This document shows positions 2,763-45,417 of a stretch of 64,000 bases of DNA, in pieces. Under the pieces are notes generated by a model that saw only the letters and a program-made list of their open reading frames with translations, searched no databases and was not told the DNA's origin. The stretch spans positions 3,840 through 67,839 of the forward strand of contig QNFE01000005.1 in the NCBI GenBank assembly GCA_003645455.1, given 5' to 3'. Numbering within the stretch: the stretch's first letter is position 1; every line of letters begins with the position of its first letter. Both the position numbers and the translations under genes were made by a program. The stretch comes from Gammaproteobacteria bacterium (GTDB taxonomy: Bacteria; Pseudomonadota; Gammaproteobacteria; QNFE01).

Positions 2763-3590
2763 TTATAACAAGTCGCCTCGTTTGAAGGTGATATACCCTA
2801 TTACAGCAGAAATTGTGCCTAAGATAAATGGATATACTATCGCCCAAATGAGATACATTGTATTACCGAAGGTATCTAAGATTAAAAAAGCCGCAGGACC
2901 TATCAAAACAAGCTGTGAGTCAAAAAGCATCATTGAGGCGGTTCTGAAAACTTGCAATGGATTTAAAAGTGCAATGGTTATAACGGTATTTGGCATTGAG
3001 GTTTGTTGCATTATCAAACCTAAGAAGATTAAATCTAATAATAATAGCAACAATAACCATAAGAAAAAAGCGAACCCCTGGGCGACATCAACAGATTTAG
3101 CAAGAGTTGAGATTAACATACTCAAGCCTAAAAAACACCAACTAAGTGAGATTAAAAAAGACGTGTAGAAAAAAAAGATTTTCCACGGAATGTCATAACC
3201 GCTAATCCCACCGATAATTATAACTGGCAACATAGCGACAAATACTGGGATAAAAACTGTAAAAAAACGCCCGATCATCTTGCCCCAAAACCAAGCCGAA
3301 AGTGACACCGGAAGCGACAATAAATATTCAAAAACTCCGGCTTCTTTGTCCCCTGCCAAAGATCGCACCGTGCTAATTAACACAAAAATTGGCATAATTG
3401 CCATTGAAAGTTGAATATATGTAATCAGTAATCTTGAAAGACCGGTAAAACCTGTAACTCTTGATTCGGTCAACCCAAAAGCAAATAACATAACCATTAA
3501 GCCACCGAACACCAAAGAATAAACCAAGAACCATTTAGCTCGGATTGATTCATTTATATCTAACAAACAGGTTTGGATAAGTTGTTTCAT
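2763..3590 (-). CDS. nosY: NosY, ABC transporter permease for NosZ maturation
   Basis: Multi-pass membrane protein with DKEAGVFEYLLSLP and LNPLQVFRTA; last gene of the nos cluster. Confidence 0.9.
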   Translation of the reverse strand: MKQLIQTCLLDINESIRAKWFLVYSLVFGGLMVMLFAFGLTESRVTGFTGLSRLLITYIQLSMAIMPIFVLISTVRSLAGDKEAGVFEYLLSLPVSLSAWFWGKMIGRFFTVFIPVFVAMLPVIIIGGISGYDIPWKIFFFYTSFLISLSWCFLGLSMLISTLAKSVDVAQGFAFFLWLLLLLLLDLIFLGLIMQQTSMPNTVITIALLNPLQVFRTASMMLFDSQLVLIGPAAFLILDTFGNTMYLIWAIVYPFILGTISAVIGYITFKRGDLL

Positions 3591-4072
3591 TATTTTTTGT
3601 CCTTTAAAAGTTTTTGCCTTTTTTGATATTCTTCTCTTGCTCTTTTTAAGTTATAAGCCTCTTTGGCGATTATACCTTCTATCATTTTTTGATAATTTAT
3701 TGTGTTTTTAGTCTCTTTTGTGCTTGCACTAAACCCAAACTCCATTGGGGTATGGTTTTCTTTGATATAAAATGCTTTTTTTGCATCTATCCATTTTGCT
3801 GTTTCGTGATCATTGACCCATATTTCAAAATTAGGATTACTTTTAATTTTTTTATTTTCCTGTAACCATAAAACAGCATCCCCTATATCATCAAATTTAT
3901 GGACTTTGTGTTTTGATATTCTAATTTGGGCTGAATGGTAGTGGTCTGATAGTGCCATTTTACAACGGACACAAATATCTCTATCCCACTTTACCTCCAC
4001 GGGTCCTGACTCTGGCACCTCACTACAAGAGAGCAAAAAAAATGCCGATAAGATTATAAAAATTCGTTTCAT
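3590..4072 (-). CDS. nosL: NosL, copper-binding lipoprotein
   Basis: Lipobox LLSC, CxxCxM motif (CVRCKM), FDDIGDA and TPMEFG motifs. Confidence 0.9.
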   Translation of the reverse strand: MKRIFIILSAFFLLSCSEVPESGPVEVKWDRDICVRCKMALSDHYHSAQIRISKHKVHKFDDIGDAVLWLQENKKIKSNPNFEIWVNDHETAKWIDAKKAFYIKENHTPMEFGFSASTKETKNTINYQKMIEGIIAKEAYNLKRAREEYQKRQKLLKDKK

Positions 4073-4920
4073 TTTTCTGTGAGTTGTATTTCTTTGAGAC
4101 TTGATGCATAACGCGACACAAGGCTTAAAAATTTTAACCTATCTGCCCCTGCTATCTCTCCTTTAAAAGTTATTCCATCTTGTGATTTTTTTAAATTCCA
4201 GTCAATCAAATTTTTAGCAAAACTATCTGTTTTTTTATTAAAAGTCAAAGTGCATAATAGTTTTTGTGCCATATCTACATTATCTGATACCATATCATCT
4301 AATATAATTATCCCTTGATCTAATTCAATTACTCTATTTACTAAGGAGGCGACCTCATCCAAACGATGAGATGATATTAACATTATTGTGTCTTGTGGTT
4401 TTTGAGCTAAGATTTTAAACAGGACTGCTCTGGCTTGTGGGTCTAAGTTTGCCGCAGGCTCATCCATAATTAAAATCGGACAATCTCTGCCAAGTGCTAT
4501 GGCTATTAATAGTTTTTGTTTTTGTCCGCCTGATAATTTGAAAAACGGCTGTTTTTTTATTGGCAAAACATCTAAACCTAAATCTTTTGCTATTTTTATT
4601 ATATGGCTCTCTTTTGTTTGAGATATTTTGGCTGAAAATTCAATCAATGAACCTACTGGCATTTTCAAAGGTGGTGGCAGTTGTGGCACAAAACCGATAT
4701 TTTTTAATACATCTGTGCGATGGTGTCTTGGGTGTTTTTTATCAATTGATACCTCACCATCATAGGTATATTCTCCTAAAATACAACGAATCAAGGTTGT
4801 TTTGCCTGCACCATTTGAACCAATTAAGGCGATTTTTTCACCTTTTTTTATGGACAAATCAAGTTCTTTTAAAATTTTATTTTTTTTAAAAGATTTTACT
4901 AATTTTTTAATTTCTATCAT
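4069..4920 (-). CDS. nosF: NosF, ABC transporter ATPase
   Basis: Walker A GSNGAGKT, signature LSGGQKQK, Walker B LIMDEP; lies between nosH and nosL. Confidence 0.9.
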   Translation of the reverse strand: MIEIKKLVKSFKKNKILKELDLSIKKGEKIALIGSNGAGKTTLIRCILGEYTYDGEVSIDKKHPRHHRTDVLKNIGFVPQLPPPLKMPVGSLIEFSAKISQTKESHIIKIAKDLGLDVLPIKKQPFFKLSGGQKQKLLIAIALGRDCPILIMDEPAANLDPQARAVLFKILAQKPQDTIMLISSHRLDEVASLVNRVIELDQGIIILDDMVSDNVDMAQKLLCTLTFNKKTDSFAKNLIDWNLKKSQDGITFKGEIAGADRLKFLSLVSRYASSLKEIQLTEK

Positions 4921-4984
4921 AGTTTTTTATCAATTATTATTGTTGTTGTTTCTGTTATTTCTTTTTTAATTGTTATTTTGTCAT

Positions 4985-6043
4985 TTATTTTTTATCAACT
5001 TTTATTTTTTGCTTATTATTTTTAGGCTCCGGATCATTACAGGGATATTTTTCACGACTAATACCTTTAAATTTAAAAGTGAGGCTATTAGTCGGGCATA
5101 TATCCACACAAGCACCGCAGCGAGTGCAGTCAGGACCCAATTCTTGGTTTTCGTTAAAACTGCGATTTTTAATTGTCCACTCTAATACGTGAGGCACAAG
5201 ACACACCTTGCGACAGTCTCCCTCGTGCAGGCAATCATTGATATTGTAATTTACCCGAAAAATTGAAAAAATCCCTACAAAACCATAAGTTAAACCAATC
5301 GGGCAAACATACCGACACCACATTCTACGAGAATATAAAATCTCAATCATCAATAGAAAGACAACCCATAACAATACAAAAGTAGGTCCATAAATCAAAG
5401 CACGGCTTAAAATTCCAGTCGGTGATATGACCTCAAACACGGTATAACCTGTTAAAAATGCTAATAACAAAAATACGATATAAAAAACAGTGCGAACCTT
5501 GCGGTTAAAAGCATGGTCTGATACTATTCCTTTTTGGGCTAATTTAAGATGAATAAACTCAGCAAATTCGGCTATCAGATGATAGGGACATACCCACGAG
5601 CAAAAAGTTCGCCCGCCAAAGATTATCCACATTATTAAAACTGTGACAAAACCTATGACTAAGTTTATTAAAATCATTTTTGAGGCAAGAGTTATTTGTA
5701 AAGCGGAGTTTAAATCTGCCATATGAAAACCCATAAATCTGGATGCAGTTAATGCACCCTCTAAGACACTCATATCAAAAAAATAAGAGACCACAAACAA
5801 TAGATTTATAAATAATAAAGTCCCCCAACGGCGGTTTCGCCATTTGTTTTTATTCTTGCGATTTTTTTCTTTGGCTTTTTCAGCCTTTAAGAGTTTAATG
5901 ACCTCTGCACCTTTGGGTTTGTTTTCATATATCTGGATTACTCTCTCACTGATATCATTTTTTAAGGTTTTGCTGACAGACTTGCCGAGCATCAAACCTA
6001 CACAATAAAAAAAACCTGGTTTTTTTTGTTTTTTATCGCTCAT
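4985..6043 (-). CDS. nosH: NosH, NapH/MauN-type membrane polyferredoxin (quinol dehydrogenase membrane subunit)
   Basis: GGRTFCSWVCP and WCRYVCPIG (CxxxCP) motifs plus a CTRCGACVDICP 4Fe-4S motif. Start placed at MSDKK (6043), which gives an ATGA overlap with the nosG stop. Confidence 0.88.
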   Translation of the reverse strand: MSDKKQKKPGFFYCVGLMLGKSVSKTLKNDISERVIQIYENKPKGAEVIKLLKAEKAKEKNRKNKNKWRNRRWGTLLFINLLFVVSYFFDMSVLEGALTASRFMGFHMADLNSALQITLASKMILINLVIGFVTVLIMWIIFGGRTFCSWVCPYHLIAEFAEFIHLKLAQKGIVSDHAFNRKVRTVFYIVFLLLAFLTGYTVFEVISPTGILSRALIYGPTFVLLWVVFLLMIEILYSRRMWCRYVCPIGLTYGFVGIFSIFRVNYNINDCLHEGDCRKVCLVPHVLEWTIKNRSFNENQELGPDCTRCGACVDICPTNSLTFKFKGISREKYPCNDPEPKNNKQKIKVDKK

Positions 6044-6834
6044 TTCTCGCTCCATTCTACTCTTTCATCAATAACAATAGCAGGCTCCGGCAATGGACAT
6101 ACCATCTCACACACACCACAACCAACACAACCTTGTAGAACTGTTGGCACATATCTGTTGTTATCTTTTTTTACTAATTCTATAGCTTTATATGGCGGAC
6201 ATTGATTTTTATCATTTTGTGGTGGTTTGCCTGCCTCACATTGCAAACGACGAATTTCAAGCGGACACAAACGCACACATAAATCACAAATTTCTAAATC
6301 ATAATCTTGACTATTTATTTCCAAAGGATTCCAGCGATCAATTTCATCAAATCTTAATTTGCCACTATAACCTTCCTCTCTGATTTTACCCTTAAAACCT
6401 TTTCCTGCTACAGCAAGACAGGTTTTAGGGCTTGATAATCTTGCCAAGCCCATTCTAGTATCTGGCACATAGTTTAAATCGTGAGTTAAAGAACCCGTAG
6501 GACAAGCTAACACACATTGCAAACCATCACAAGAGAAGTCACAAGCCTGAACACGAGCATCAATATATGGAACGCCTGATCCTTGTCCGTCAAAAATATC
6601 TCCCAGAAATATTGCCTCTACCGGACAAACTTGGACACATTGACCACATTTTATACAACTTGCCAGATATAATTTTTCATCCAAAGCCCCAGGTGGGCGA
6701 AGCCTTGGAGCTGAATTAGTTAGAGTGGGGATTAAAGCTGCCAAAGATATGCCCGTTACCGAAGTTGCCAAAACTGTTGTTCTTAAAAACTCTCGTCTTG
6801 CCTTCTCTGCTCGGTTTAGTTTTTTATCACTCAT
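6040..6834 (-). CDS. nosG: NosG, NapG/MauM-type periplasmic polyferredoxin
   Basis: Tat motif ARREFL, LRPPGA, and four Cys clusters (CIKCGQCVQVCP, CDFSCDGLQCVLACP, CDLCVRLCP, CVGCGVCEMVCP). Confidence 0.88.
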   Translation of the reverse strand: MSDKKLNRAEKARREFLRTTVLATSVTGISLAALIPTLTNSAPRLRPPGALDEKLYLASCIKCGQCVQVCPVEAIFLGDIFDGQGSGVPYIDARVQACDFSCDGLQCVLACPTGSLTHDLNYVPDTRMGLARLSSPKTCLAVAGKGFKGKIREEGYSGKLRFDEIDRWNPLEINSQDYDLEICDLCVRLCPLEIRRLQCEAGKPPQNDKNQCPPYKAIELVKKDNNRYVPTVLQGCVGCGVCEMVCPLPEPAIVIDERVEWSEK

Positions 6835-8066
6835 AATTTTGTTTTGTCTTTCTTAAAAGGTTTTTTATCTCTTAATAATAATCGTGGCTCTGAAAATGGT
6901 GCCAATCTCTCCAAAAAATCTAAAACCTCTAATACCGGAGTTGCTTTGAAAAATTTTGCCATTGGCACATCTGCCCATATTCTATCAGCATAACTATATA
7001 ACTCATATGGGGTATCGCCTATGTTGTCATTATTGTTGTCAAAACCTTGATAGTCGTCCCAATAATTGCCATCCCATTCATTTTTGGTAGCACCGCCATT
7101 GCCATTTACCATCACTTGATTAATATTAGATTTAAAAATATTGTTTGAAATTTTATTGCCCCACCATGGGCTGTGAAATAAAAAACCTACTCCATTGAAG
7201 GCTATGAGATTATCTTTGACGATATTAAATGTATCTGGTTGGAAGGGTGAGTTATCGCTGAATAATCCGGTGGCACAATATAAAATTTTATTGCCAATTA
7301 TTTTGGAATCTGATGTTTCTTTGATACCGATTCCCATCCCTGTGACCCCTTGTGAGTTTGCTATATAATTATTTTTTATGGTGACACTATCGCTATACAT
7401 TAAAAAAATACCAACCGAGCCACCAACATAATAATTGTTTTCAACCAAATTTTCTTGAGCATACATAAAATGCAGGGAATATCTGCCACCTGTGGTTTTA
7501 TTGCCTGAGATTACATTGCCTTTGCTATACCATACCACCATATCACGAGCTCCGGTTATGATATTGTCTTTAATTTGATTATCAAAACTATACCAAAGAC
7601 GAATGGAATCCCCCTTCATGCCAAGGCTATTTGCTGATTTTGAACTTATTTTGTTGCGTTTTATTATGTTGTTTTTGGCTTGCCCTAAATCAATACCAAA
7701 CAAACATTCATCAATTACAACATTTTTTATGACATTAAAATTGCCCCGAACCATAACCCCCGAGTCAAGATCGTTATGAGATTCGCCGGAATTAGTGAGC
7801 CTTATATTTTTGATTGTGACACCGTCTGTTTTGATATGAATAACAGAGCCTTTGCCACCGCCATCAATTATAACCTTATTTCTGCCATCAATGGTAATAG
7901 ATTTAGTGATAACAACAGGTCCTGCATATCTACCCGCCTTAGGGCTTATGACATCGCCTTTTTGTGCATTATCTATCAATTTTTGAAAAGATGGTAATTG
8001 TATTGCATTTGTTGTGTTTACAACAAAACACAAAATAACCATAGAAAAAAACTGCCATCTATTCAT
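6831..8066 (-). CDS. nosD: NosD, periplasmic beta-helix maturation protein
   Basis: Signal peptide, parallel beta-helix repeats, GDSIRLWYS, RYSLHFMY, GNYWDDYQGFD, GDTPY. Confidence 0.93.
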   Translation of the reverse strand: MNRWQFFSMVILCFVVNTTNAIQLPSFQKLIDNAQKGDVISPKAGRYAGPVVITKSITIDGRNKVIIDGGGKGSVIHIKTDGVTIKNIRLTNSGESHNDLDSGVMVRGNFNVIKNVVIDECLFGIDLGQAKNNIIKRNKISSKSANSLGMKGDSIRLWYSFDNQIKDNIITGARDMVVWYSKGNVISGNKTTGGRYSLHFMYAQENLVENNYYVGGSVGIFLMYSDSVTIKNNYIANSQGVTGMGIGIKETSDSKIIGNKILYCATGLFSDNSPFQPDTFNIVKDNLIAFNGVGFLFHSPWWGNKISNNIFKSNINQVMVNGNGGATKNEWDGNYWDDYQGFDNNNDNIGDTPYELYSYADRIWADVPMAKFFKATPVLEVLDFLERLAPFSEPRLLLRDKKPFKKDKTKL

Positions 8067-8068
8067 TT

Positions 8069-9268
8069 TTAATGATTTTCTTTATAGCGTAACAATGCCA
8101 TCAAAGCAGTTAAAACTGCAACTAACATTATTAAACCAAAACCGTAGTCCGGATAGGAGTAGGTGGCAAACTGGGCTACTTTACCAACCCCAAAAACTGT
8201 TGGCATAAAAGGCTTAACGGTAAATGCTCCAAATTCTGACAAATTATGACCAAACCAATATAACCAACCGGCATAATCAGCCACAAAGAAAACTGGCAAC
8301 ATCATAGGCACTATAATAAGCAACCAGTAAATTTGTTTATATTTTAGCCCGCCTATAACAAGCAATAAAATAGCAAAAACTAATCCTGCAAAAACGACAA
8401 TCGTAGCATTTTTGATGATCTCAACTCGTTTGACATCTGGGATTGAATCTGTATGAGCAAACTTATCACAGGCTTGCATAAAATCTTTTTGAATTACATC
8501 AGTAGTTATATTGTCTTTATTTTTGAATTTTTTATATGTTTTGCTAAACACTCCCATTAATGCAGGATTATCCACCCCATTAGCACTTAAAACATCATTA
8601 AGGCTTAAAAATTCTTTATTTTGTGAGCTATATAATTTTAGATATTTCATTAGAGGTTCATATTTTTCACACTTTACTTCAACTGTGGGGAAGTATCGTG
8701 CCAAGGATTCGGCATAACTTCTTTGTATAACTTCTAATCCTGTTAGGTGATGCACTTCATTATCATCCAAATCCATCGTAGTTTGCACATCATTGAGATA
8801 TGGTGAAGATTGCATCTCTGCTCCGCCTTCGGTGAATAAAACCATAGTTGCCCACAGAATTATCAAACTTCCTGTCGACCCTAACCATATAGTTCGATAT
8901 TTTTTATCGGTCATTATAAAGCCTATAATCATAACCGCCAATAAGGCAAATATAAAAGGAGACATAGCTCGTTCCACAGGAGCTCCTGCGGCAATTGGAT
9001 ACATTCCTACATAATGGTTAATAGCATCCATCTCATGTTTGCAATTTAAAGCCTCATCTTCGGTAAGTTCAGCGGATTTAACCTTAGTGCAGCCGTTAAA
9101 TACTCCATTGACATGAAAATTAATCTTAATGCCGTCAGGAAAAGCTACTTCTGGATATTGGGGGGCTGTTAGGGATACCCACCAAACAGGGGAGAAGAAA
9201 ATAAAAAATAGGAGTGCAACTGCACTAGTTCCAAGCGAAGCTATAATAATATTTTGTTTTTTAAGCAT
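8069..9268 (-). CDS. nosB: NosB, clade II nos membrane protein
   Basis: WWVSLTAPQYPE...PDGI, HEMDAINHYVGM, WLYWFGHNL and PFMPTVFGVGKVAQFATYSYP motifs; sits between the cytochromes and nosD. Confidence 0.8.
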   Translation of the reverse strand: MLKKQNIIIASLGTSAVALLFFIFFSPVWWVSLTAPQYPEVAFPDGIKINFHVNGVFNGCTKVKSAELTEDEALNCKHEMDAINHYVGMYPIAAGAPVERAMSPFIFALLAVMIIGFIMTDKKYRTIWLGSTGSLIILWATMVLFTEGGAEMQSSPYLNDVQTTMDLDDNEVHHLTGLEVIQRSYAESLARYFPTVEVKCEKYEPLMKYLKLYSSQNKEFLSLNDVLSANGVDNPALMGVFSKTYKKFKNKDNITTDVIQKDFMQACDKFAHTDSIPDVKRVEIIKNATIVVFAGLVFAILLLVIGGLKYKQIYWLLIIVPMMLPVFFVADYAGWLYWFGHNLSEFGAFTVKPFMPTVFGVGKVAQFATYSYPDYGFGLIMLVAVLTALMALLRYKENH

Positions 9269-9318
9269 AGTGTATAATTTTAAAAATAATATTTATTACG
9301 AATAAAATAAAGATACAA

Positions 9319-9350
9319 AAAAAACAAGGGGCAAAAACCCCTTGTTTTTT
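9319..9350 (-). terminator. Rho-independent terminator-like hairpin between nosC2 and nosB
   Basis: 13 bp stem aaaaaacaagggg / ccccttgtttttt with a 6 nt loop, immediately after the nosC2 stop; T-tract on both strands. Confidence 0.7.
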
Positions 9351-9365
9351 ATAGGATTAGATTTT

Positions 9366-10112
9366 TTAATCGTAATCAGGGTTTTGCCATCCTACTGGTG
9401 CTACATCTTTTTTAGGGACTGGGATGCGCGAGGCATAGTTAATAACCATCGCCATATCTGCATCAGAGAAACCTTTGATTTGTTTAACCATATCAGGATT
9501 TGCATTACGACGTTTACCGTCTCTAATCCATTCAAACTGGCGAATCATATAACTATAATGTTGTCCGACAATCTTAGGATAAAATTTAATCGCATCACCT
9601 TCACCTGCTTTACCGTGACATTCAGTGCAATTATCATCATAAAGTTTTTTACCCTTGACAAATTCAGGAGTGCCTTTGGCCCATTTACCTTTGTGATTAT
9701 TAGGGTTCATTTTTAATTTTGCAATGTAGTCGGTAACATCTGCCATAGCCTGCTCGTCACCGATAGATTCTGGCAAGGCAAAAGGATACATCGTAGGGTT
9801 ATCGCGATTTAATGCCCTAATATCGGCAAGTTGCTTGATTAAGACCGAGCGATGTTGCCCTGCAAGTTGCGGAAATGTGCCATCTACTGTACCCCAGCCT
9901 TCCAACAAATGACAAGCCGAGCATACTTCATAAACCTCAATGCCATTTTTTTTATCAGCTTTTAGATGCATAGCTTTATCAGTCTCACCTGAATGAGTTG
10001 TGTCGCTCCAAACTTTTACATCCGTTGCCTGTTTAGTGCTTTTATCAGCATACGATGAACTTACTGAAAGCAAAAATAAAACTGACAAAATTATTGATAT
10101 ATTTTTTTTCAT
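9366..10112 (-). CDS. Di-heme c4-type cytochrome (NosC2-like)
   Basis: Signal peptide; two CxxCH motifs (CSACH, CTECH); FPQLAGQH and YPKIVGQH; within the nos cluster. Confidence 0.88.
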   Translation of the reverse strand: MKKNISIILSVLFLLSVSSSYADKSTKQATDVKVWSDTTHSGETDKAMHLKADKKNGIEVYEVCSACHLLEGWGTVDGTFPQLAGQHRSVLIKQLADIRALNRDNPTMYPFALPESIGDEQAMADVTDYIAKLKMNPNNHKGKWAKGTPEFVKGKKLYDDNCTECHGKAGEGDAIKFYPKIVGQHYSYMIRQFEWIRDGKRRNANPDMVKQIKGFSDADMAMVINYASRIPVPKKDVAPVGWQNPDYD

Positions 10113-10137
10113 AATATTTACCTTTTAAAAAATTTAA

Positions 10138-10752
10138 TTATTTTAAAGTAGCCAACCAAGTAGCTATCTCCTCTATTTGCTTGTCATCAACAAGTCCCAT
10201 TACACCTTTCATAGCAGCGGATTGTCCGTTTGCTCTTTTGCCAGACTTTATATCTTTCATTTGATTTAGAATATACTCTTTGCTTAACCCTGTAAGATTA
10301 GGATAGATTGGTAAAATTGGAGTTTTAGCATCCTTACCATGACAAGACCAACAAGTCTTTTCTTGGAACAACTTTGCACCACCTGTTAATGCTTCTTTTG
10401 CTTTTGGAGCAGCAGTGGCAGTTTTTGCAGGAGCAGTAGATGCTATCCAAGCTGCAATCTCATCAATTTGTTTGTCATCTAATAATCCCATAAAACTTTG
10501 CATCGCAACAGAGTGTCCATTCTTTCTTTTACCAGATTTAATATCTTTCATTTGAGCAGATATGTATTCCTTTTTTTGATTCGCTAAACTTGGATAAATC
10601 GGTAAAACTGGAGTTTTTGCATCTTTGCCGTGACAAGACCAACAAGCATTGACATTATCTTGAAATAATTTTTCGCCGTCAGCTAAGACAAGATTAGAAA
10701 ATGCGACAGATGTTAACAGGCTTGTCGCTATAAGTGTAATTTTTACTTTCAT
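10138..10752 (-). CDS. Di-heme cytochrome c made of two tandem near-identical domains (NosC1-like)
   Basis: Signal peptide; two CWSCH motifs, each followed by YPxL...QMKDIKSGKR...AM; Ala/Thr/Lys/Pro-rich linker. Confidence 0.88.
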   Translation of the reverse strand: MKVKITLIATSLLTSVAFSNLVLADGEKLFQDNVNACWSCHGKDAKTPVLPIYPSLANQKKEYISAQMKDIKSGKRKNGHSVAMQSFMGLLDDKQIDEIAAWIASTAPAKTATAAPKAKEALTGGAKLFQEKTCWSCHGKDAKTPILPIYPNLTGLSKEYILNQMKDIKSGKRANGQSAAMKGVMGLVDDKQIEEIATWLATLK

Positions 10753-10858
10753 ATTTTACATCCTTAAAGTTAAAAAAAATCTCTTTCGTTAAAAACATAT
10801 AAGAGTAGAGATGAAACTCTTATCAAAATAACCTTAACAAAAAATAGTTATTTTGATA

Positions 10859-10896
10859 AAAGCAAGGTGGGTATAAAATAAAACCCACCTTGTTTT
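10859..10896 (-). terminator. Rho-independent terminator-like hairpin after nosZ
   Basis: 10 bp stem caaggtgggt (10863-10872) / acccaccttg (10883-10892), followed by cTTTT on the minus strand, about 30 bp after the nosZ stop. Confidence 0.7.
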
Positions 10897-10921
10897 GTTT
10901 TTAGAAACAAATCAATAGCTT

Positions 10922-13219
10922 TTACTTCTTAATTTTCTTAGCTTTGTTTTGCTCTAAATAGGATTTAGCACGGATACCGATATCCGCAGCTTTAACCTGA
11001 TACTGCCACCATTGACCCGCTTGCAAAGTTGCATTCTGCCAATCTTTTGCTTTGGCTGAGGCCTCTGATTTTTTCTGCCATGTAGCTGCAAACCCTAACT
11101 GGTCGGTTGCATCTTCTACCAAAGCTACCGCAGTAGGAAAATCCTTATAGTTGCGCTCAGTGATGAATTTAACCACACCATTGATAACAGCTTGGGTTGC
11201 AATATTAGTCTTAACCTGTTTGTCATAATCAGCTTTGGTGTAGGTTTGACCTTCAACCATTTTGGTTTTAACTGCTTTATAACCTTTTGGTTTGACTAAT
11301 AAATAACCTTGCATCTCCAAATGTAATGCAGAGCAAAACTCGGTGCAATAGTATGGAAATACACCTTCTCTATCAGCTACAAATGTAGCAGAGACAGTTT
11401 TACCAGGCTCTACTGACAAGTTCACATTTTGACCATACATAGCGAAACCGTGAGTTTCATCCTGCGCACGCTCTAAGTTGGTTAAATGGATTATAACAGT
11501 ATCTCCTGCTTCTGCTTCAATAATCTCTGGTGTAATGTGTGAGCGAATAAGAGTTCCCCATACTTCGGTTGTACACTTATCACCTTCACAATTACGAACA
11601 GTTTTTTCACGACCTGCACGAGTTTTAAAAGGAGAAATTGAATCAGTTCTGCTGTTCCAACCAGACTTATAACGAACAGCCGGTTTTAACTTATCAGCAC
11701 TAATCGCCGCGGCATAGTGAGGTTCGCCTAATGGAACTGGCATATCATATAGCAATTGCATTTTATCACCTGAGATATCAATTAACTGGTGGTTTTGCGG
11801 ATGCAAAGGACCTACAGGGTTGAATCTATCAATTGATAATTTATTCAAAGCAACAAGATATTTACCCTTAGGAGTAACAGAGTCACCTTCCATTGACATT
11901 AAATGTCCGACATTATAATGGATAGATAGTTTATCCAAAACTTTGCCTTTACAATAATCCCATTTAGTTATAACTGAGTCAACATAAATAGAGGTATAAG
12001 CAATACATTCTTTTGAATCATATTGAGTGTGTAGCGGACCTAAACCTACTTCTACTTGTACATGAACCGAGTCTTTTAAAGATACAATTGGAATACCGTA
12101 TGGATCTTTGCCTTCATATTTCTTAGCTTTATGAGCTTTCATCATTTTTTCAAAGCTATATACAGTCGCATGAGAGTCAAGCTTACCTGATACAATTAAA
12201 AATTTACCAGTAGGATTCATCATAACACCGTGTGGGCTTTTATGCTCTGGCACGAGAAATAAAGCACCTGCATCTACCATAGTTTTCATTGATAACATGT
12301 CCATGCCATTTACTTTCTTGGCTTTGCCGCCTGCTACTAATTCGGCAGCTTTCTTCCAGTTAATTACCTGCAAGAAATCAGTATCTTTTTGTGAGCAACC
12401 TGCCTCAAATGGAGGACGACCACGTTCAATACCACCGACATATCTCTCAGAACAAAAAGAGTTAGTAAAAGACCAGCCATCAGATGGGCCTTTACCGGCG
12501 TCTGATAAATCTTGGCTATATGGAGGAAGTTCAACTGTAAAAGATTTAGACTTATCTATACGACCTTTTTTGCGATCAAATTTCCAGTAAGTTACACCAC
12601 CACGATATTTGTCATTAAATTGCTCTAATGGCACAAATTTATCAGCAAAAGGGGCAGCATATTGAGCAGCTTCAATTACATATTCTGTATTTGGAGTTAC
12701 GAAAGCACCACCGTGTTCATTTTTGAAATGAGGATTAACCACGATTTGTTTGGTTTCAAAATCATGTAAGTCAATCACAGCTACACGAGGGTTAGCCTTG
12801 TCATTGATGAATACATACTGTCCATCATAAACACCCTTGGTTTCTGTGAATGCTGGATGGTGAGTATCACCATAATTGATTTGTTTACCGTGAATCTTGC
12901 CTTGGGCTAAAACAGCTTTTGATTCATCATCAAAGCCATAACCCTGCCAAGGTTCTGGGGTAAAAACCGCAATATACTTTAAAATCCGCATAGATGGGAT
13001 ACCATAGACAATTACTTGTCCCGATTGTCCGCCTGATGAAAAGACAATAAATTCGTCTCGACCAGCAGTTGGGGTATAGGTTTTGGCTGCCGCTAATAAA
13101 TCTTTTTGGGTTAAACCACGAGCCTTCATAACATCATCCAAAGCTGACGCAGAGGCTACGTTAATAAGACCAAAAGATATAATAGCAAACAAAAAACCTG
13201 TTAAGTTTTTAAATTTCAT
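10922..13219 (-). CDS. nosZ: Nitrous oxide reductase, clade II (Sec-exported), with a C-terminal extension
   Basis: CuZ histidine motifs (GDTHH, NEHG, KSPHG, GPLH, VGH, EPH) and CuA motif DETHG...CTEFCSALHLEM. The signal peptide is hydrophobic and has no twin-arginine. A Cys-free 121 aa tail follows the CuA domain. Confidence 0.97.
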   Translation of the reverse strand: MKFKNLTGFLFAIISFGLINVASASALDDVMKARGLTQKDLLAAAKTYTPTAGRDEFIVFSSGGQSGQVIVYGIPSMRILKYIAVFTPEPWQGYGFDDESKAVLAQGKIHGKQINYGDTHHPAFTETKGVYDGQYVFINDKANPRVAVIDLHDFETKQIVVNPHFKNEHGGAFVTPNTEYVIEAAQYAAPFADKFVPLEQFNDKYRGGVTYWKFDRKKGRIDKSKSFTVELPPYSQDLSDAGKGPSDGWSFTNSFCSERYVGGIERGRPPFEAGCSQKDTDFLQVINWKKAAELVAGGKAKKVNGMDMLSMKTMVDAGALFLVPEHKSPHGVMMNPTGKFLIVSGKLDSHATVYSFEKMMKAHKAKKYEGKDPYGIPIVSLKDSVHVQVEVGLGPLHTQYDSKECIAYTSIYVDSVITKWDYCKGKVLDKLSIHYNVGHLMSMEGDSVTPKGKYLVALNKLSIDRFNPVGPLHPQNHQLIDISGDKMQLLYDMPVPLGEPHYAAAISADKLKPAVRYKSGWNSRTDSISPFKTRAGREKTVRNCEGDKCTTEVWGTLIRSHITPEIIEAEAGDTVIIHLTNLERAQDETHGFAMYGQNVNLSVEPGKTVSATFVADREGVFPYYCTEFCSALHLEMQGYLLVKPKGYKAVKTKMVEGQTYTKADYDKQVKTNIATQAVINGVVKFITERNYKDFPTAVALVEDATDQLGFAATWQKKSEASAKAKDWQNATLQAGQWWQYQVKAADIGIRAKSYLEQNKAKKIKK

Positions 13220-13345: not shown

Positions 13346-13388
13346 AGAATAACATAATAAATTTCTTTATGCAAATTATTTCTATCAA
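13346..13388 (-). promoter_or_regulatory. Putative FNR/DNR-type promoter of nosZ
   Basis: Minus strand reads TTGAT-agaa-ATAAT (8/10 match to TTGAT-N4-ATCAA), directly followed by TTGCAT, a 17 nt spacer ending in TGT, and TATTCT. The box centre would be about -42.5. Confidence 0.4.
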
Positions 13389-13427
13389 TAACAATAAACC
13401 AATTAAATATTGCAGTTTTATTTATTT

Positions 13428-13586
13428 GAGACCTTTGCATAATTCAAGCACAATTTATAAAACACACAAAATGCACCTTTTCATAGCAAAAATTCGTCAA
13501 AGGACTTGCCATTTTCCTCATTTTTGCTATAAAAATTCACTATTTTCTGTATTCTCTAAACAGCACTTGAATTATCCAAAGGTCTC
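13428..13586. mobile_element. 159 bp MITE-like element with GAGACCTTTG termini (IS5/IS1106-like ends)
   Basis: 21 bp terminal inverted repeats gagacctttgcataattcaag / cttgaattatccaaaggtctc (1 mismatch). ATTT lies directly on both sides (candidate 4 bp target duplication). Internal 11 bp inverted repeat at 13483-13493 / 13520-13530. No transposase ORF. Confidence 0.75.
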
Positions 13587-14022
13587 ATTTAATTTTTTTA
13601 TCGTCATTATTAATCTCATAAAATTCACCGTCTATAATGGTATCCGATTTTTTGTCTCCTGATACACTAAAATCTATAAATAATGCCAAGCCAAACTCTG
13701 CAATAAACTCACGGATAAAAGGGATTAGAAGCAAAAAACCTATGCTATCTGTAAAAAAACCAGGTGTCAACAATAAAGCGGCACTAATGATTAAAAATAT
13801 ACCATCGGCTAATTCTGCTGTTGGTATTTTCCCTTGTTGCAATTTATTTTGAAATTTTTTGATAACAGATAATCCTTGTTGTTTCAACAAAGATACTCCG
13901 ATTATTGCAGTTAGGATTATCATTGCAATAGTTGGCCATACTCCGATTAATTCACCCACAAAAATAAAAAAATAGATCTCAATTATAGGGATTATTATAA
14001 AAAGTGTAAGGGCAATAGACAT
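13585..14022 (-). CDS. fxsA: FxsA family membrane protein
   Basis: PIIEIYFFI, TAIIGVSLLKQQG, LLLTPGFFTDSIG and the C-terminal IIDGEF motif. Confidence 0.9.
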   Translation of the reverse strand: MSIALTLFIIIPIIEIYFFIFVGELIGVWPTIAMIILTAIIGVSLLKQQGLSVIKKFQNKLQQGKIPTAELADGIFLIISAALLLTPGFFTDSIGFLLLIPFIREFIAEFGLALFIDFSVSGDKKSDTIIDGEFYEINNDDKKIK

Positions 14023-18385: not shown

Positions 18386-19024
18386 TTATTTGTAGTTATT
18401 AACGACCCTTGTAATGTCAGAGATAAAACTATCTAATTTATGGGGCAATGGAAAGACTGCATGCAACTTCCCCTCTGGGTTGATCAGATAAATATCCGCC
18501 GAATGGTTGATGAGGTACGAATCTTTTAACTCATCTGGCACGGTTGCATTTTTTTTAATAATAACCTGTTTACCGTCTTTGTGATAAACTCTTTCATAAA
18601 TAACATTCATAAAACTTGATAATTTATCTGATTCCGTTTGTTTGCCACCTATGCCTATAAAATTCTTATTAAAGTATGCCGTAAATTTATTTAACATATC
18701 AGGTGTGTCTCTTGATGCATCTACACTAACAAAATAAACATCGGGCATTTTTATTTTAATGTTTTCTGATATATTATTTAAAAACATCAACTCCGTAGGG
18801 CAAACATCAGGGCAACGAGCATAACCAAAAAACATTATACTCCATTTGTTTTTTAACGATTGATTGTTAAATGGTTTGTCGTTTTGTTGCAATTGGAATT
18901 TAGGCAAATCTTTGGCAGGGCTGACAAAACGAGCCACTTCCAAACTTGGTAATTTTGACATCAAAATAACAGCAGAGATTATGACCGCAACTATTAAAGA
19001 CGAGAATATATATATTTTTTTCAT
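18386..19024 (-). CDS. SCO1/SenC family copper chaperone
   Basis: FFGYARCPDVCP (CxxxC), FVSVD and NHS (conserved His); N-terminal membrane anchor. Confidence 0.92.
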   Translation of the reverse strand: MKKIYIFSSLIVAVIISAVILMSKLPSLEVARFVSPAKDLPKFQLQQNDKPFNNQSLKNKWSIMFFGYARCPDVCPTELMFLNNISENIKIKMPDVYFVSVDASRDTPDMLNKFTAYFNKNFIGIGGKQTESDKLSSFMNVIYERVYHKDGKQVIIKKNATVPDELKDSYLINHSADIYLINPEGKLHAVFPLPHKLDSFISDITRVVNNYK

Positions 19025-19097: not shown

Positions 19098-19613
19098 TTA
19101 CTTTTTCATAGGTTTTTCCATAGGCATAGCTTTTTTATGCTCGCCTGACATATTGTGTTTCATCATCATGCCTTTCATTTTGCCTTTCATTTTTTTAACA
19201 GGAGCCTCAACATCAAGTTTGCTACCGTCATCAAATTCTAAGGTAAGTTTTACAGATTCACCCACTTTTGGCACGGCTTTTGGCTGGATAAGCATAATGT
19301 GCCAACTACCAGGTTGCAACACTAATTCACCACCTGCTTTGATTGGCATAAACTCTTGTTTAATCATTTTCATCATGCCATCTTGCTTCAAGGTGCGATG
19401 TAACTCAATAACTTTGTAGTTATCAGGGTTGCTAACAGATGCTTTGACGAGCTTTTTATCAACTTTTGAATTGTTGATAATTTTCATAAAAGCTGCTGTG
19501 GCAGGAGCATTTTGAGGAGCCGCACGTACCCATGGATTATCAATAACAAGGTCGGCGGCATTAACGGATATGGATGCAAGCATCATAATGCTCGCTAAGA
19601 TAATTTTTTTCAT
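19098..19613 (-). CDS. PCuAC family periplasmic copper chaperone
   Basis: Signal peptide, PWVRA, TAAFM, ELH...MMKM, LQPGSWHIML; Met/His-rich C-terminal tail. Confidence 0.92.
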   Translation of the reverse strand: MKKIILASIMMLASISVNAADLVIDNPWVRAAPQNAPATAAFMKIINNSKVDKKLVKASVSNPDNYKVIELHRTLKQDGMMKMIKQEFMPIKAGGELVLQPGSWHIMLIQPKAVPKVGESVKLTLEFDDGSKLDVEAPVKKMKGKMKGMMMKHNMSGEHKKAMPMEKPMKK

Positions 19614-20153: not shown

Positions 20154-20183
20154 ATGCCATTTTTTTATATGGAGTGGTTTTAT

Positions 20184-20771
20184 ATGTCAGATAATATAGA
20201 TACCAAAAAACGCAGAACCTTATTAGGTGCTACTGTTGCTGTGGGAACTGTAGCAGGAGTTGGTGCTGTATATCCACTATTGGCATCGATGCAACCATCT
20301 GCACGAGCTCTTGCAGCTGGTGCATCAGTTGAGATTGATATTAGCAATTTGCAAATCGGACAACAAGTCACAGTTGAGTGGCGAGGAAAACCTGTATGGA
20401 TTGTTCGTCGCAGTAAAAAATCATTGGAAGATTTAGCAACTTTAAACGATTCGTTGGTAGATCCTAACTCTGATGTGCCACAGCAACCAGAATATGCAAA
20501 AAATGCTAATCGCTCCATCAAGGATGAATTTTTAGTGATTGTCGGTATCTGCACTCACTTAGGATGTGTGCCTACCTACCGCCCTGATATAGCACCTGCC
20601 GATCTCGGAGCTGATTGGAAAGGGGGCTTTTTTTGCCCTTGTCACGGTTCTACTTTTGATTTAGCAGGACGGGTTTACAAAGGTGTGCCGGCACCTACAA
20701 ATTTAGTCGTGCCACCCTATAAATATTTAAGCGAAGCTAAATTATTGATTGGCGAAGGAGAGATAACATAA
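20184..20771 (+). CDS. petA: Ubiquinol-cytochrome c reductase Rieske Fe-S subunit
   Basis: Tat-like KRRTLL, CTHLGC and CPCHGS Rieske motifs; start moved to MSDNID. Confidence 0.95.
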   Translation: MSDNIDTKKRRTLLGATVAVGTVAGVGAVYPLLASMQPSARALAAGASVEIDISNLQIGQQVTVEWRGKPVWIVRRSKKSLEDLATLNDSLVDPNSDVPQQPEYAKNANRSIKDEFLVIVGICTHLGCVPTYRPDIAPADLGADWKGGFFCPCHGSTFDLAGRVYKGVPAPTNLVVPPYKYLSEAKLLIGEGEIT

Positions 20772-21982
20772 TGATGAGTAAAATTTTAAATTGGATTGAT
20801 TTAAGATATCCGCTAACCTCTACCTGGGAGCAACATCTTTCAAAATACTATGCTCCTAAAAACTTTAATTTTTGGTATTATTTTGGTTCACTTGCATTGT
20901 TGGTTTTGGTAATTCAAATTGTAACTGGTATTTTTCTAGCTATGCACTTTAAACCTGATGCGGCGACAGCTTTTGCCTCTACTGAATATATAATGCGTGA
21001 TGTGCCATGGGGTTGGTTAGTGCGATATATGCACTCAACTGGGGCATCTATGTTTTTTATTGCCATTTATCTACATATGTTCCGAGGACTTATCTATGGC
21101 TCTTTTAAAAAACCTCGTGAATTATTATGGGTAATCGGGATGCTTATTTATGTCGCTTTGATGGCAGAGGCATTTATGGGTTATTTATTACCATGGGGAC
21201 AGATGTCATACTGGGGTGGGCAAGTTATTATCTCTTTATTCGGTGCAATACCCGCTATTGGCGAGCCTTTGGCATTATGGATTAGAGGTGATTTTGTTAT
21301 AGCAGATGCAACTTTGAATCGCTTTTTTGCTTTTCATGTAATCGCTATTCCGTTAATTTTAGTCATTCTTGTTTTTGTCCATATTATCGCTTTACATAAA
21401 GTCGGCTCAAATAACCCAGACGGAGTTAATATCAAAGAACACAAAGATAAAAACGGTGTGCCATTAGATGGTATTCCTTTTCATCCTTATTATACCCTCA
21501 AAGATATTGTGGGAATCGGGGTCTTTATGATGATATTTTTTGCCATTGTTTTCTTTGCCCCTGAAATGGGAGGTTATTTTATCGAACATGCTAACTTTAT
21601 CCCGGCAAACCCGATGGCAACACCTGAGCATATTGCACCACTTTGGTATTTTACACCATTTTATGCAATCTTGCGAGCTGTGCCTGATAAGTTTATGGGA
21701 GTGGTAGCGATGGGGGCTGCGATTATGATATTATTCGCGCTACCTTGGATTGATCGTGGTAAAGTCCTATCAATTCGTTATCGCTCGGTCGCTTATAAAG
21801 TTTTAATTGCAATTTTTGTTATAAGTTTTTTTGTCTTGGGTTATCTGGGTATGCAACCTGCCACGGCGACTATGACTCTAATAGCACAAATTGCCAGCAT
21901 CGCATATTTTGGTTTTTTTATCGCTTTGTTTTTTATTAGCAAAAATGAAAAAACAGGCGAAGTTCCAAAGAGGGTAACATAA
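20771..21982 (+). CDS. petB: Cytochrome b
   Basis: NFWYYFGS, RYMHSTGAS, LHMFRG, LPWGQMSYWG and TPEHIAPLWYF (PEWY-equivalent region). Confidence 0.97.
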   Translation: MMSKILNWIDLRYPLTSTWEQHLSKYYAPKNFNFWYYFGSLALLVLVIQIVTGIFLAMHFKPDAATAFASTEYIMRDVPWGWLVRYMHSTGASMFFIAIYLHMFRGLIYGSFKKPRELLWVIGMLIYVALMAEAFMGYLLPWGQMSYWGGQVIISLFGAIPAIGEPLALWIRGDFVIADATLNRFFAFHVIAIPLILVILVFVHIIALHKVGSNNPDGVNIKEHKDKNGVPLDGIPFHPYYTLKDIVGIGVFMMIFFAIVFFAPEMGGYFIEHANFIPANPMATPEHIAPLWYFTPFYAILRAVPDKFMGVVAMGAAIMILFALPWIDRGKVLSIRYRSVAYKVLIAIFVISFFVLGYLGMQPATATMTLIAQIASIAYFGFFIALFFISKNEKTGEVPKRVT

Positions 21983-22707
21983 TGAAAATAACAATAAATA
22001 CTTTTATCGCTCTATCATTTTTATTGGTAGGTACTGTCTCATTCGCCGCAGGCAATGTCAAATTAGATAGTGTTGATATTGATGTAAGCGACCATGAATC
22101 TTTGCAAAGAGGTGCAAAAACTTTCATCAATTATTGTATGGGTTGCCATAGTCTCTCATATCAGCGATATAACAGAATGGCAGATGACATCGGCATAAAT
22201 ATTGACCAACTCAAAGAAAATCTAATTTTTACGACTGATAAAAATGGTAAAAAAAGCAAAGATGGTGCTTTGATGAAAATCACAATGCAAAAAGACTACA
22301 CCGAGAAAGCTTTCGGGGTAGCGCCTCCTGATTTAACCGTAATTGCAAGATCTAATGGCACCAACTGGCTTTATACCTATTTAAGATCTTTTCATAAAGA
22401 TGAAAAATCTGCCACAGGTTTTGCCAATACTGTCAAAATTGTTAGTATGCCAAATGTTTTGTGGCAATTACAAGGCGAACAGGTGCTTGATAAAAAAACA
22501 GGTAAATTCTCTATCAGTAAATTAGGATTACAAACCCCGAAAGAATTTGATGCCACAATTAAAGATTTGGTAACATTTTTATCCTATACTGGTGAACCCA
22601 TTCAACAAACAAGAAAAACATTAGGAATATGGGTGTTGTTATTTATGTTAATTTTTACAATCGTCGCTTATTTCTTAAAAAAAGAATACTGGCGTGACAT
22701 CCATTAA
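21982..22707 (+). CDS. petC: Cytochrome c1
   Basis: SLQRGA, CMGCH, PPDLT, SMPNVL; C-terminal TM helix and KKEYWRDIH. Confidence 0.95.
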   Translation: MKITINTFIALSFLLVGTVSFAAGNVKLDSVDIDVSDHESLQRGAKTFINYCMGCHSLSYQRYNRMADDIGINIDQLKENLIFTTDKNGKKSKDGALMKITMQKDYTEKAFGVAPPDLTVIARSNGTNWLYTYLRSFHKDEKSATGFANTVKIVSMPNVLWQLQGEQVLDKKTGKFSISKLGLQTPKEFDATIKDLVTFLSYTGEPIQQTRKTLGIWVLLFMLIFTIVAYFLKKEYWRDIH

Positions 22708-25436: not shown

Positions 25437-26321
25437 ATGAGAGATAATCTCATAATAGTAATATATAAATTCTTCGGCAGATTATCCTTCCCCACAATTC
25501 AAAAAGTCGGCTCTCTGGTGGGCTTGATATTATATCTAATTCCCAATAAACAAAAAAAAATAACCCAGATAAATATAAATATGTGTTATCCGGATTTAAC
25601 AGATAAACAAAAAAAAGAGCTAATAAAGAACCATTTAAAAGCTGTTGGTATGACATTATTTGAGAGTATGTATATGTGGCATACGGACAAAAAAGAAGTG
25701 GAAAAACTTATTCAGAAGCCTATCAATCAACAAATATTCAAAGATGCTCTCCAAAAAAAAGAAAAAATAATTCTGGCTATTTTGCATTTTGGCAACTGGG
25801 AGATAGGAATTTTAGATTTTAAAAAAATAATAGATGTTCGCTCTTTATATGCCCCTATAAAGTATAAAAAATTAGAAAACTATTCTTATAAAAAAAGAAT
25901 ACAGTTAGGATGGCAACTGGCAAATGGTAACAAATCTGGCATTAAAATGTTAATGCAATCTTTAAAAAATAACCAAGTCATAGGGATAGCGGCGGACCAG
26001 GTACCAGTGCACGGCAGCGGTATTTTTAGTCAATTTTTTAATAACTCTGCCTATACTATGACTTTAATGGTGCAACTTGCTCTAAAAAATAAGGCCACCA
26101 TAATTTTTACCGTTATGGAGAGGTTAGAAAAACACGAAGGTTTTAGAATGCACTACATAAAAGCCGATAAAGATATTTATAATCAAGATATAAGCATAGC
26201 AACAAAAAGCATGAATAAAAGTTTAGAAAAATGTATAAAAATCAATCCTGCACAATATATGTGGAATTACAAAAAATTTAAAATTCAACCAGATAATAAA
26301 AAAAATCCTTACAATTTTTGA
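25437..26321 (+). CDS. lpxL: Lipid A lauroyl/myristoyl acyltransferase (LpxL/HtrB family)
   Basis: HFGNWE (HxxxxE), AADQ, NPAQYMWNYKKFK. Confidence 0.8.
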   Translation: MRDNLIIVIYKFFGRLSFPTIQKVGSLVGLILYLIPNKQKKITQININMCYPDLTDKQKKELIKNHLKAVGMTLFESMYMWHTDKKEVEKLIQKPINQQIFKDALQKKEKIILAILHFGNWEIGILDFKKIIDVRSLYAPIKYKKLENYSYKKRIQLGWQLANGNKSGIKMLMQSLKNNQVIGIAADQVPVHGSGIFSQFFNNSAYTMTLMVQLALKNKATIIFTVMERLEKHEGFRMHYIKADKDIYNQDISIATKSMNKSLEKCIKINPAQYMWNYKKFKIQPDNKKNPYNF

Positions 26322-26359
26322 TTTAAATCATTGTAAATTAAAACCTACAAACATATTAT
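26318..26359 (+). promoter_or_regulatory. FNR/Anr box and -10 element upstream of hemN
   Basis: TTGAT-ttaa-ATCAT (26318-26331) is a 9/10 match to TTGAT-N4-ATCAA. TATTAT at 26354-26359 places the box centre at -41.5 if it is the -12..-7 hexamer. Confidence 0.7.
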
Positions 26360-27799: not shown

Positions 27800-27880
27800 G
27801 AGACTTTTTCATAGCAAAAATTTGTCATCAAACGAGCATAGCGGAGAACTTCAAAGGACTTGCCATTTTCCTCATTTTTG
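27800..27880. repeat. Internal segment shared with the 13428 element, between convergent genes
   Basis: 27851-27880 tcaaaggacttgccattttcctcatttttg is identical to 13497-13526. The segment ttttcatagcaaaaatt is also shared. An extra ~27 bp segment lies between them, and the left end gagactttttc is degenerate. Confidence 0.75.
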
Positions 27881-27882
27881 GT

Positions 27883-31581: not shown

Positions 31582-31619
31582 TATGTAACAATAAATAAAT
31601 TCACACATTATATATTTTT

Positions 31620-33009: not shown

Positions 33010-33591
33010 TTAATTTCTATCAGATTTGTGTTTTTCCAGATAACTAATCACTCTTTCTAAAAACTTTGTATCATCTTTGAATCTTCCTAACCCAGTATTA
33101 CAACTATCGCATATCCATTCTCGCCCCTTGCCAGTTTCGTGATCATGGTCTCTGACTAAATTTGCTGTTATTCCTACTATAGTGGTTTTTAAACAAATAG
33201 GACACTCAAAGATACTGCCTTTTCCGGGTTTTACTTTGTTCATTTTATTTTTTTCTGCGGCTGTTAATTTAACGCCATCTATATTTTTTCTGCATTCTTT
33301 GCAGCTTGGTCTAGTTGTTTTTTGCCCTTTTGCATCTGTTTGGTTTACATCAAATTCTTCTGTGGTTTTCAGGATGTGGCAAATATTACATATTTTTTTG
33401 TCGTATCCCTTTCCAGTATGTTCGGCATCTATGGCTCTGATATTATCAAAATCTACTCTTAGTATTTTATTTAAGCCCACGAATAAAACCATAGCATTTT
33501 TACCATTTATAGCTTTGATAATTCCTATGGAATTGTTTGCTATGTTGCTTAATTTTGTTGTATTGATAATAATATTGTCAATTTTTATCAT
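33010..33591 (-). CDS. Hpy99I-like type II restriction endonuclease (beta-beta-alpha-Me, Zn-binding)
   Basis: Four CxxC pairs (CNIC, CKEC, CPIC, CDSC); DHDH...REWICDSCNTGLGRF active-site region; segments TGKGYDKKICNICHILK and NQTDAKG..TTRPSC match Hpy99I as recalled. Confidence 0.85.
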   Translation of the reverse strand: MIKIDNIIINTTKLSNIANNSIGIIKAINGKNAMVLFVGLNKILRVDFDNIRAIDAEHTGKGYDKKICNICHILKTTEEFDVNQTDAKGQKTTRPSCKECRKNIDGVKLTAAEKNKMNKVKPGKGSIFECPICLKTTIVGITANLVRDHDHETGKGREWICDSCNTGLGRFKDDTKFLERVISYLEKHKSDRN

Positions 33592-45280: not shown

Positions 45281-45289
45281 TATCTATTA

Positions 45290-45385: not shown

Positions 45386-45417
45386 TAATAATTTTTAGAA
45401 AAATAACGGAAAATAAA

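Follow-up and report, generated by a model that had tools for sequence, protein, structure and literature searches.

A complete clade II nos cluster of common gene order in an uncultured AT-rich gammaproteobacterium

Ten consecutive nos genes on contig QNFE01000005.1 (assembly GCA_003645455.1) raise the question of which nitrous oxide (N2O) reducing system they encode, whether this system is complete, and how far it departs from those of other bacteria. We analysed a stretch of 64,000 nucleotides from this contig, hereafter the window (64 kb), and conclude with high confidence that the genes form a complete and intact clade II, i.e. Sec-dependent, locus for N2O respiration. It is of the type found in marine sulfur-oxidising Gammaproteobacteria, with a NosZ of the 'Dechloromonas-Magnetospirillum-Thiocapsa' lineage. 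On the minus strand, from 13219 down to 2763, the open reading frames (ORFs) follow one another in the order nosZ-C1-C2-B-D-G-H-F-L-Y, with a hairpin between two of them:

10922-13219, minus strand: nosZ, 765 amino acids (aa); TIGR04246 at 859 bits, cutoff 625.
10138-10752, minus strand: nosC1, 204 aa; two CxxCH motifs and a signal peptide.
9366-10112, minus strand: nosC2, 248 aa; two CxxCH motifs, periplasmic cytochrome c4-like dihaem protein.
9319-9350, minus strand: terminator-like hairpin in the nosC2/nosB spacer; consensus scan, fold -22.9 kcal/mol.
8069-9268, minus strand: nosB, 399 aa; BLASTP against reference NosB, E 6e-24 and 1e-16.
6831-8066, minus strand: nosD, 411 aa; TIGR04247 at 387 bits, cutoff 300, and a PF05048 match.
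6040-6834, minus strand: nosG, 264 aa; NapG-like poly-[4Fe-4S] ferredoxin with the Tat motif RREFLR.
4985-6055, minus strand: nosH, 356 aa; TIGR02163 at 234 bits, cutoff 213.
4069-4920, minus strand: nosF, 283 aa; ABC ATPase, PF00005.
3590-4072, minus strand: nosL, 160 aa; PF05573 at 30.1 bits, cutoff 24, lipobox FFLLSC.
2763-3590, minus strand: nosY, 275 aa; ABC-2 permease, PF12679 and PF01061.

The encoded proteins were identified by profile searches against Pfam and NCBIfam, the latter with its curated cutoffs. Neighbouring genes are spaced between a 16-nt overlap and a 169-nt gap, there are no frameshifts, and the ORF lengths agree with those of the homologues. A first-pass annotation, made from the nucleotide sequence, had already read ten contiguous nos genes in this order, and every one of these ORFs is indeed in place. 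We also asked whether the ORF at 2179-2676, which follows nosY, could be a further nos gene, and rejected this: it matches no family, no relative has it beside the cluster, and it bears no relation to the ORF after nosY in the closest relative.

The accepted distinction between the two clades sets Sec export and nosB against export by twin-arginine translocation (Tat) and nosR (PMC11409646). NosZ exceeds the cutoff of the Sec-type model with its 859 bits and falls below those of the Tat-type model TIGR04244 (359.5 bits, cutoff 625) and of the clade III model NF052460 (183 bits), and its best database matches carry the annotation Sec-dependent nitrous-oxide reductase. The profile models thus uphold the clade II assignment of the first-pass annotation, and a placement in clade I, which would have spoken against it, is contradicted by the failure of NosZ on the clade I model. 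By inspection, the N-terminus of the protein, MKFKNLTGFLFAIISFGLINVASASA, consists of a positively charged n-region, a hydrophobic core at residues 5-28 and an ASA motif, and no RR pair occurs within the first 40 residues, in agreement with the non-Tat signal that had been proposed.

All seven histidines of the catalytic CuZ centre and the His/Cys/Cys/His/Met ligands of the CuA motif, HGF...CTEFCSALHLEM, align with the clade I structures PDB 9f8x and 1qni, in the segments DTHHP, EHGG, SPHG, PLHT, VGHL, EPHY, ETHGF and CTEFCSALHLEM. The ligand residues of the two centres are invariant across 32 NosZ homologues. A comparison of NosZ with solved structures turned up no clade II NosZ among them.

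The other defining feature of the clade, nosB, sits three genes downstream of nosZ. Profile searches with the ORF at 8069-9268 returned no Pfam or NCBIfam family. Its product shares two blocks with the NosB of Sulfurimonas denitrificans, taken from the reference sequences in Text S1 of a published nosZ survey (PMC11409646), and these blocks are separated by an insert of about 155 aa. Because of these two matching blocks, about six hydrophobic segments and the lack of a haem motif, we assign the ORF to NosB, a polytopic membrane protein and marker of clade II; relatives encode proteins of about 395-400 aa at this position. NosG resembles the NapG and MauM families (123 bits, under their equivalog cutoffs), with its Tat motif beginning at residue 13 and cysteine motifs for iron-sulfur (Fe-S) clusters. 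NosH, a NapH-like Fe-S subunit of a membrane quinol dehydrogenase, combines hydrophobic segments with a C-terminal Fe-S motif. The profile matches identify the nosD product as a periplasmic beta-helix maturation protein and the nosL product as a lipoprotein copper chaperone. The maturation genes are ordered F-L-Y here and in all relatives, in which nosF keeps its position at 49-59% identity and nosY is 59-68% identical. The export signals are of Sec type, without twin arginine, in NosZ, NosC1, NosC2 and NosD; NosG bears its Tat motif and NosL its lipobox. As noted in the first pass, the cluster lacks nosR and nosX. Neither NosR nor NosX/ApbE is encoded by any ORF of the 64-kb window, and the sole match to the NosR model is a partial hit of 28 bits within NosH.

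How unusual is such a locus? NosZ has thousands of homologues. Identity to the best 120 is 75-87%, and almost all of these have a length of 761-770 aa; those with names belong to Thiohalobacter, Sedimenticolaceae, Ca. Thiodiazotropha, a Gigantopelta symbiont and unclassified Gammaproteobacteria. A search that covered a single genome for each species, the host species not being represented, returned at least 589 relatives of NosZ, the best of them at 79% identity, and we compared the gene order in the best 80 loci. The ten genes occur in exactly the order of the window in 48 of these 80, and a further 26 are colinear up to the end of the contig. Among the 80 are Sedimenticola selenatireducens, Ca. 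Thiodiazotropha endolucinida, Ca. Thiosymbion and tubeworm symbionts, together with Beggiatoaceae, metagenome-assembled genomes (MAGs) from Saanich Inlet and some alphaproteobacterial MAGs. Sulfur-oxidising Gammaproteobacteria were moreover reported in 2018 to be, in marine sediment, the dominant carriers of clade II nosZ of the 'Dechloromonas-Magnetospirillum-Thiocapsa' lineage (PMC6440730). The rarity implied by the first-pass annotation, which had set the cluster against the clade I systems of well-studied gammaproteobacterial denitrifiers, does not survive this comparison: within this NosZ lineage the identical succession of ten genes is usual, and clade II nosZ of sulfur-oxidising Gammaproteobacteria is published. 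That annotation had itself allowed that novelty would drop if close relatives routinely carried the cluster, as they do. Since clusters of identical gene order abound in relatives and clade II nosZ of such bacteria has been described in the literature, novelty is low. This is an ordinary clade II nos locus in a new uncultured AT-rich host, and the cluster itself will not surprise a specialist.

The closest resemblance is to the clusters of the sulfur oxidisers. Sedimenticola selenatireducens BK-1 (locus L055), Ca. Thiodiazotropha endolucinida (L022) and symbionts of tubeworms and lucinids have the identical Z-C1-C2-B-D-G-H-F-L-Y order, with a NosZ of about 765 aa that is 75-79% identical and shares its C-terminal domain, a haem-free NosB and a dihaem C2. 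Unlike these clusters, the one in the window has a GC content of 0.36 (mostly 0.45-0.65 in the others) and a different genomic context, and differs from them in NosC1 and upstream of nosZ, as described below. Among more distant clade II systems, the nos order of Wolinella succinogenes, Z-B-D-G-C1-C2-H-F-Y-L, differs from that of the window. The Wolinella NosZ ends in a cytochrome c domain, whereas the NosZ studied here ends in a haem-free domain of three helices without CxxCH. In gene content the two are alike: the clade II cluster of Wolinella and the Campylobacterota, the model studied genetically (Hein et al. 2017), likewise comprises a Sec-type NosZ, NosB, NosG, NosH, two NosC and NosDFYL, and lacks NosR. 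Unlike the NosB-NosC fusions of the reference set, NosB is here unfused to a cytochrome and carries its long insert centrally. With the clade I nosRZDFYL(X) clusters of Pseudomonas stutzeri, Paracoccus and Marinobacter (structures 3sbp, 1fwx and 1qni) the window shares the seven-histidine CuZ propeller, the cupredoxin CuA domain and the NosDFY-L set; in contrast to it, those clusters rely on Tat export and NosR, often with NosX, and are devoid of NosB, NosGH and NosC. The locus adds one more AT-rich gammaproteobacterium of marine sediment to the pool of clade II N2O reducers and is useful for cataloguing marine N2O sinks. Interest is confined to its local variants and to the NosZ C-terminal domain common to the whole lineage; the nearly universal FNR/DNR-type box of the lineage with its decay here, the duplicated NosC1 and this helical domain are small leads on how such clusters are wired and regulated.

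The first of these variants is NosC1. It consists of two tandem halves, each with one CxxCH motif, which are identical at 56 of 83 aa (67%) and at 72% of their DNA. Almost all relatives, including the closest one (locus L086, NosZ 87% identical), encode instead a monohaem protein of about 107 aa at this position, to which the C-terminal half of the NosC1 in the window is 64-68% identical. NosC1 also matches cytochromes c4 and c552 in the PDB (including 1cno); it is a periplasmic dihaem cytochrome c in which a c552-like monohaem unit has been duplicated in tandem. We rejected an assembly artefact as the source of the duplication: the copies have diverged to the stated DNA identity, and the gene reads the same, with 0 differences, in an independent metagenome contig. 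NosC2 matches the cytochrome c4 of PDB 6q2u (E 2.8e-16) and is 60-78% identical in relatives at a conserved position.

The second lead is the extension of about 120 aa beyond the CuA domain of NosZ (residues ~646-765; 10922-11290, minus strand). It contains no CxxCH haem motif, belongs to no Pfam family and has no counterpart in the solved NosZ structures, which stop at the CuA domain. The extension is strongly conserved among homologues and is common to the whole NosZ lineage; a search of the accessible literature yielded no description of it. Modelled in isolation, the domain forms a three-helix bundle with a predicted local distance difference test score (pLDDT) of 90, and a Foldseek search of the PDB with it gave nothing significant, the best match having an E value of 0.48 among generic helical proteins. 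The full-length NosZ model is only moderate, with a mean pLDDT of 63.7, and was not used for placing the domain. Speculatively, and we regard this as rather doubtful, the domain could be a functional module to which the NosC cytochromes or the NosB/NosGH membrane complex dock or are tethered, in place of the cytochrome c domain of campylobacterial NosZ, with electron entry in this organism further remodelled by the duplication of NosC1 into a c4-like dihaem protein.

How would such a set of proteins work together? By analogy with Wolinella succinogenes genetics and clade I enzymology, we infer the electron route, the roles in maturation and the actual reduction of N2O as follows. NosZ would be exported unfolded through Sec and, in the periplasm, would receive copper and sulfide via the ABC-type NosDFY machinery and the lipoprotein NosL. 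Electrons would enter from the quinol pool by way of the membrane-associated, NapGH-like NosGH and/or the cytochrome bc1 complex, pass to periplasmic NosC1 and NosC2, and from there reach CuA and finally CuZ of NosZ, with NosB as a presumably essential membrane partner. In Wolinella, NosGH-C1-C2 and NosB are required, according to Hein et al. 2017 as cited in PMC11102522, and the title of that paper (cited in PMC11102522 and PMC11409646) states that N2O respiration there also depends on the Rieske/cytochrome bc complex. That the host would be an N2O sink and that electrons would pass through NosGH, as the first-pass annotation proposed, are reasonable suggestions by homology to Wolinella.

This latter dependence also bears on the possibility that electrons flow mainly via cytochrome bc1 and NosC, and that NosGH and NosB, rather than carrying the respiratory flux, keep the copper centres reduced and active, as has been proposed for NosR in clade I. 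The bc1 genes petABC are encoded at 20154-22707, 7 kb from the cluster, and the membrane and Fe-S module that NosH shares with the C-terminal part of NosR, visible in the NosR match noted above, would suit a NosR-like role. The resemblance of NosC1 to the cytochrome c552 of PDB 1cno points in the same direction, as a c552 of this kind is an electron donor of a clade I NosZ. That petABC lies so close may however be coincidental, because the context of the locus differs in the closest relative. The sequence does not discriminate between the two routes, nor do they exclude each other. We regard a predominant bc1 route as possible, although we do not favour it, and keep to entry through NosGH and/or bc1. 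Beside petABC lie genes for the copper chaperones Sco1/SenC (18386-19024) and PCuAC (19098-19613), 5-9 kb from nosZ. The proximity of Sco1, PCuAC and petABC to the cluster may have a bearing on CuA assembly and the supply of electrons, or be coincidental.

Is the host then a denitrifier or a scavenger of N2O produced by others? The nirHJ genes that the first pass had pointed out are present in the window. The gene nirJ (51174-52307, minus strand) reaches 596 bits against a NirJ equivalog cutoff of 515 and adjoins a gene for a NirH/AhbB-like siroheme decarboxylase subunit (52308-52775, minus strand). The two genes come immediately after rplQ, where the ribosomal-protein/rpoA operon ends, and the closest relative has the identical arrangement (locus L085, 13487-15101). 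No other haem d1 genes occur near them, and the siroheme decarboxylase gene is a lone one. Together, the pair points to haem d1 synthesis and hence to a cd1 nitrite reductase encoded in another part of the genome. A non-denitrifying scavenger, with nosZ and neither nir nor nor genes, would accord with the absence of nirS, nirK, nor and nap genes from the 64-kb window and with the many carriers of clade II nosZ that have no other denitrification genes (PMC11409646). Yet Pseudomonadota with clade II nosZ are mostly denitrifiers according to the same survey, and both the NirJ score above the equivalog cutoff and the retention of the gene pair in the closest relative argue against it as well. We therefore consider a pure scavenger unlikely.

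The region upstream of the cluster contains two further features:

13375-13388, minus strand: decayed FNR/DNR-type box, TTGATAGAAATAAT, with two mismatches, in the nosZ upstream region.
13427-13587, strand not applicable: nested repeat resembling a miniature inverted-repeat transposable element (MITE), with terminal inverted repeats, 208-368 bp upstream of the nosZ start codon.

We searched the 300 bp that precede nosZ, both in the window and in the related loci (L002-L088), for an FNR/DNR-type box (TTGAT-N4-ATCAA, at most one mismatch). Such a box is present in 58 of 79 related loci, against a mean of 1.45 after shuffling, and the closest relative has a perfect one at -170. The upstream region of nosZ in the window contains no box with at most one mismatch and retains only the two-mismatch remnant, read from 13388 to 13375. 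The homology to the promoter region of the closest relative ends at the edge of the repeat. Further copies of this MITE-like element, whose DNA folds with a z score of -5.6, lie in the prfB-lysS spacer (outer element, 45285-45391) and after hemN (inner element, 27806-27880). The repeat is very abundant, with a high copy number, because the assembler word depth over it is about 2100-2365 in one metagenome run, compared with 15.7 in its flanks (~140x), and about 207-230 compared with about 8 (~25x) in another. For the hemN gene (26408-27796) the first pass had proposed an FNR-type promoter. A one-mismatch FNR-like box is indeed present at 26318-26331; it is however a single match of a kind that chance could give, since the AT-rich window shows no excess of such boxes (12 seen, 8.7 expected), and the promoter is unsupported.

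Several points weigh against the view of the cluster as a working N2O respiration locus. The FNR/DNR-type box upstream of nosZ has decayed in this organism, which makes anaerobic induction of nos uncertain, and no RNA run contains the sequence. Our view of the genome is moreover that of the 64-kb window, and we know of no gammaproteobacterium in which the use of ubiquinol or menaquinol and the shares of NosGH and bc1 have been tested. The cluster might accordingly be intact and at the same time cryptic or poorly expressed, with its FNR/DNR-dependent promoter decayed and a repeat inserted upstream. Such a state would be in line with the missing box, which most relatives have, and with the position of the nested repeat, which starts 35 bp upstream of the residual half-site. 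A recognisable box is, however, also missing in 21 of the 79 relatives, and the two-mismatch box with its intact TTGAT half-site may still bind a regulator. Ten full-length ORFs with conserved catalytic residues furthermore argue for continued selection, and we judge a cryptic cluster to be quite improbable.

Within the cluster, the hairpin between nosC2 and nosB has a 14-bp stem flanked by A- and T-runs. It probably splits the locus into separate or attenuated transcription units, nosZ-C1-C2 and nosBDGHFLY. Relatives also have a structured spacer of 110-280 nt between nosC2 and nosB.

To which organism does the locus belong, and how long has it resided there? The window has a GC content of 34.5%, and its SecY shares 94% identity with one metagenome contig and no more than 82% with any other sequence, with named relatives that are all labelled 'Gammaproteobacteria bacterium' or 'Chromatiales bacterium'. 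This supports the AT-rich gammaproteobacterial host that had been suggested at first reading. Campylobacterota, which the low GC content had led us to suspect, were rejected as the host, as both the relatives of SecY and the lineage of NosZ belong to the Gammaproteobacteria. Relatives have the same arrangement of petABC-sspAB and of the ribosomal-protein operon, and the 64-kb window contains no rRNA or tRNA gene. The sequence is present in one run labelled 'sediment metagenome' and one labelled 'marine metagenome'.

The cluster is flanked by pcnB and tatD on one side and by fxsA, nadA and ilvD on the other, and the genes around it are of an ordinary housekeeping kind. The flanking genes differ from those of every relative; in the closest one, recA-recX-nth occupy the upstream place that fxsA-nadA hold here. 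A recently acquired mobile island could explain this difference and the MITE-like repeat that abuts the cluster, and the NosZ lineage does cross class boundaries, with alphaproteobacterial MAGs among the matches. However, all ten genes have a host-like GC content, overall and at third codon positions (GC3), whereas most donor-like relatives have a GC content of 45-65%, and no integrase, transposase or tRNA lies at the cluster borders. NosZ divergence also tracks that of SecY, with 87% identity accompanying 94% in the closest case and about 82% accompanying 82% in the next. The GC3 values of the nos genes (0.22-0.38) are comparable to those of the housekeeping genes (0.25-0.33), and the cluster has therefore probably resided in this AT-rich lineage for a long time. 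Recent horizontal transfer finds no support in base composition, and we consider a mobile island highly improbable.

Elsewhere, the window encodes sspAB, lpd, lpxL, hemN, rho, comEC, rpsA, prfB, lysS, rnfA and pyruvate:ferredoxin oxidoreductase. The last of these, a protein of 1191 aa, directly follows rnfA/rsxA (46974-51124, plus strand for both), and the pair points to a low-potential ferredoxin metabolism in the host. A probable restriction-modification pair at 33010-34385 (minus strand) is composed of an adenine-type DNA methyltransferase (33588-34385) and, after it, a His-Me finger/endonuclease VII protein with a restriction-endonuclease SH3 domain (33010-33591, minus strand). The ORF of prfB (44309-45280, plus strand) begins at position 34 of the release factor 2 model, as would be expected if the usual programmed +1 frameshift site lay just upstream. 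Finally, the minus strand at 27883-31608 encodes a fusion protein of 1241 aa that joins a GlcD-like FAD domain to a GlcF/LdhH-like Fe-S domain, and a one-mismatch FNR-like box is located at 27878-27891, at the start of this gene.

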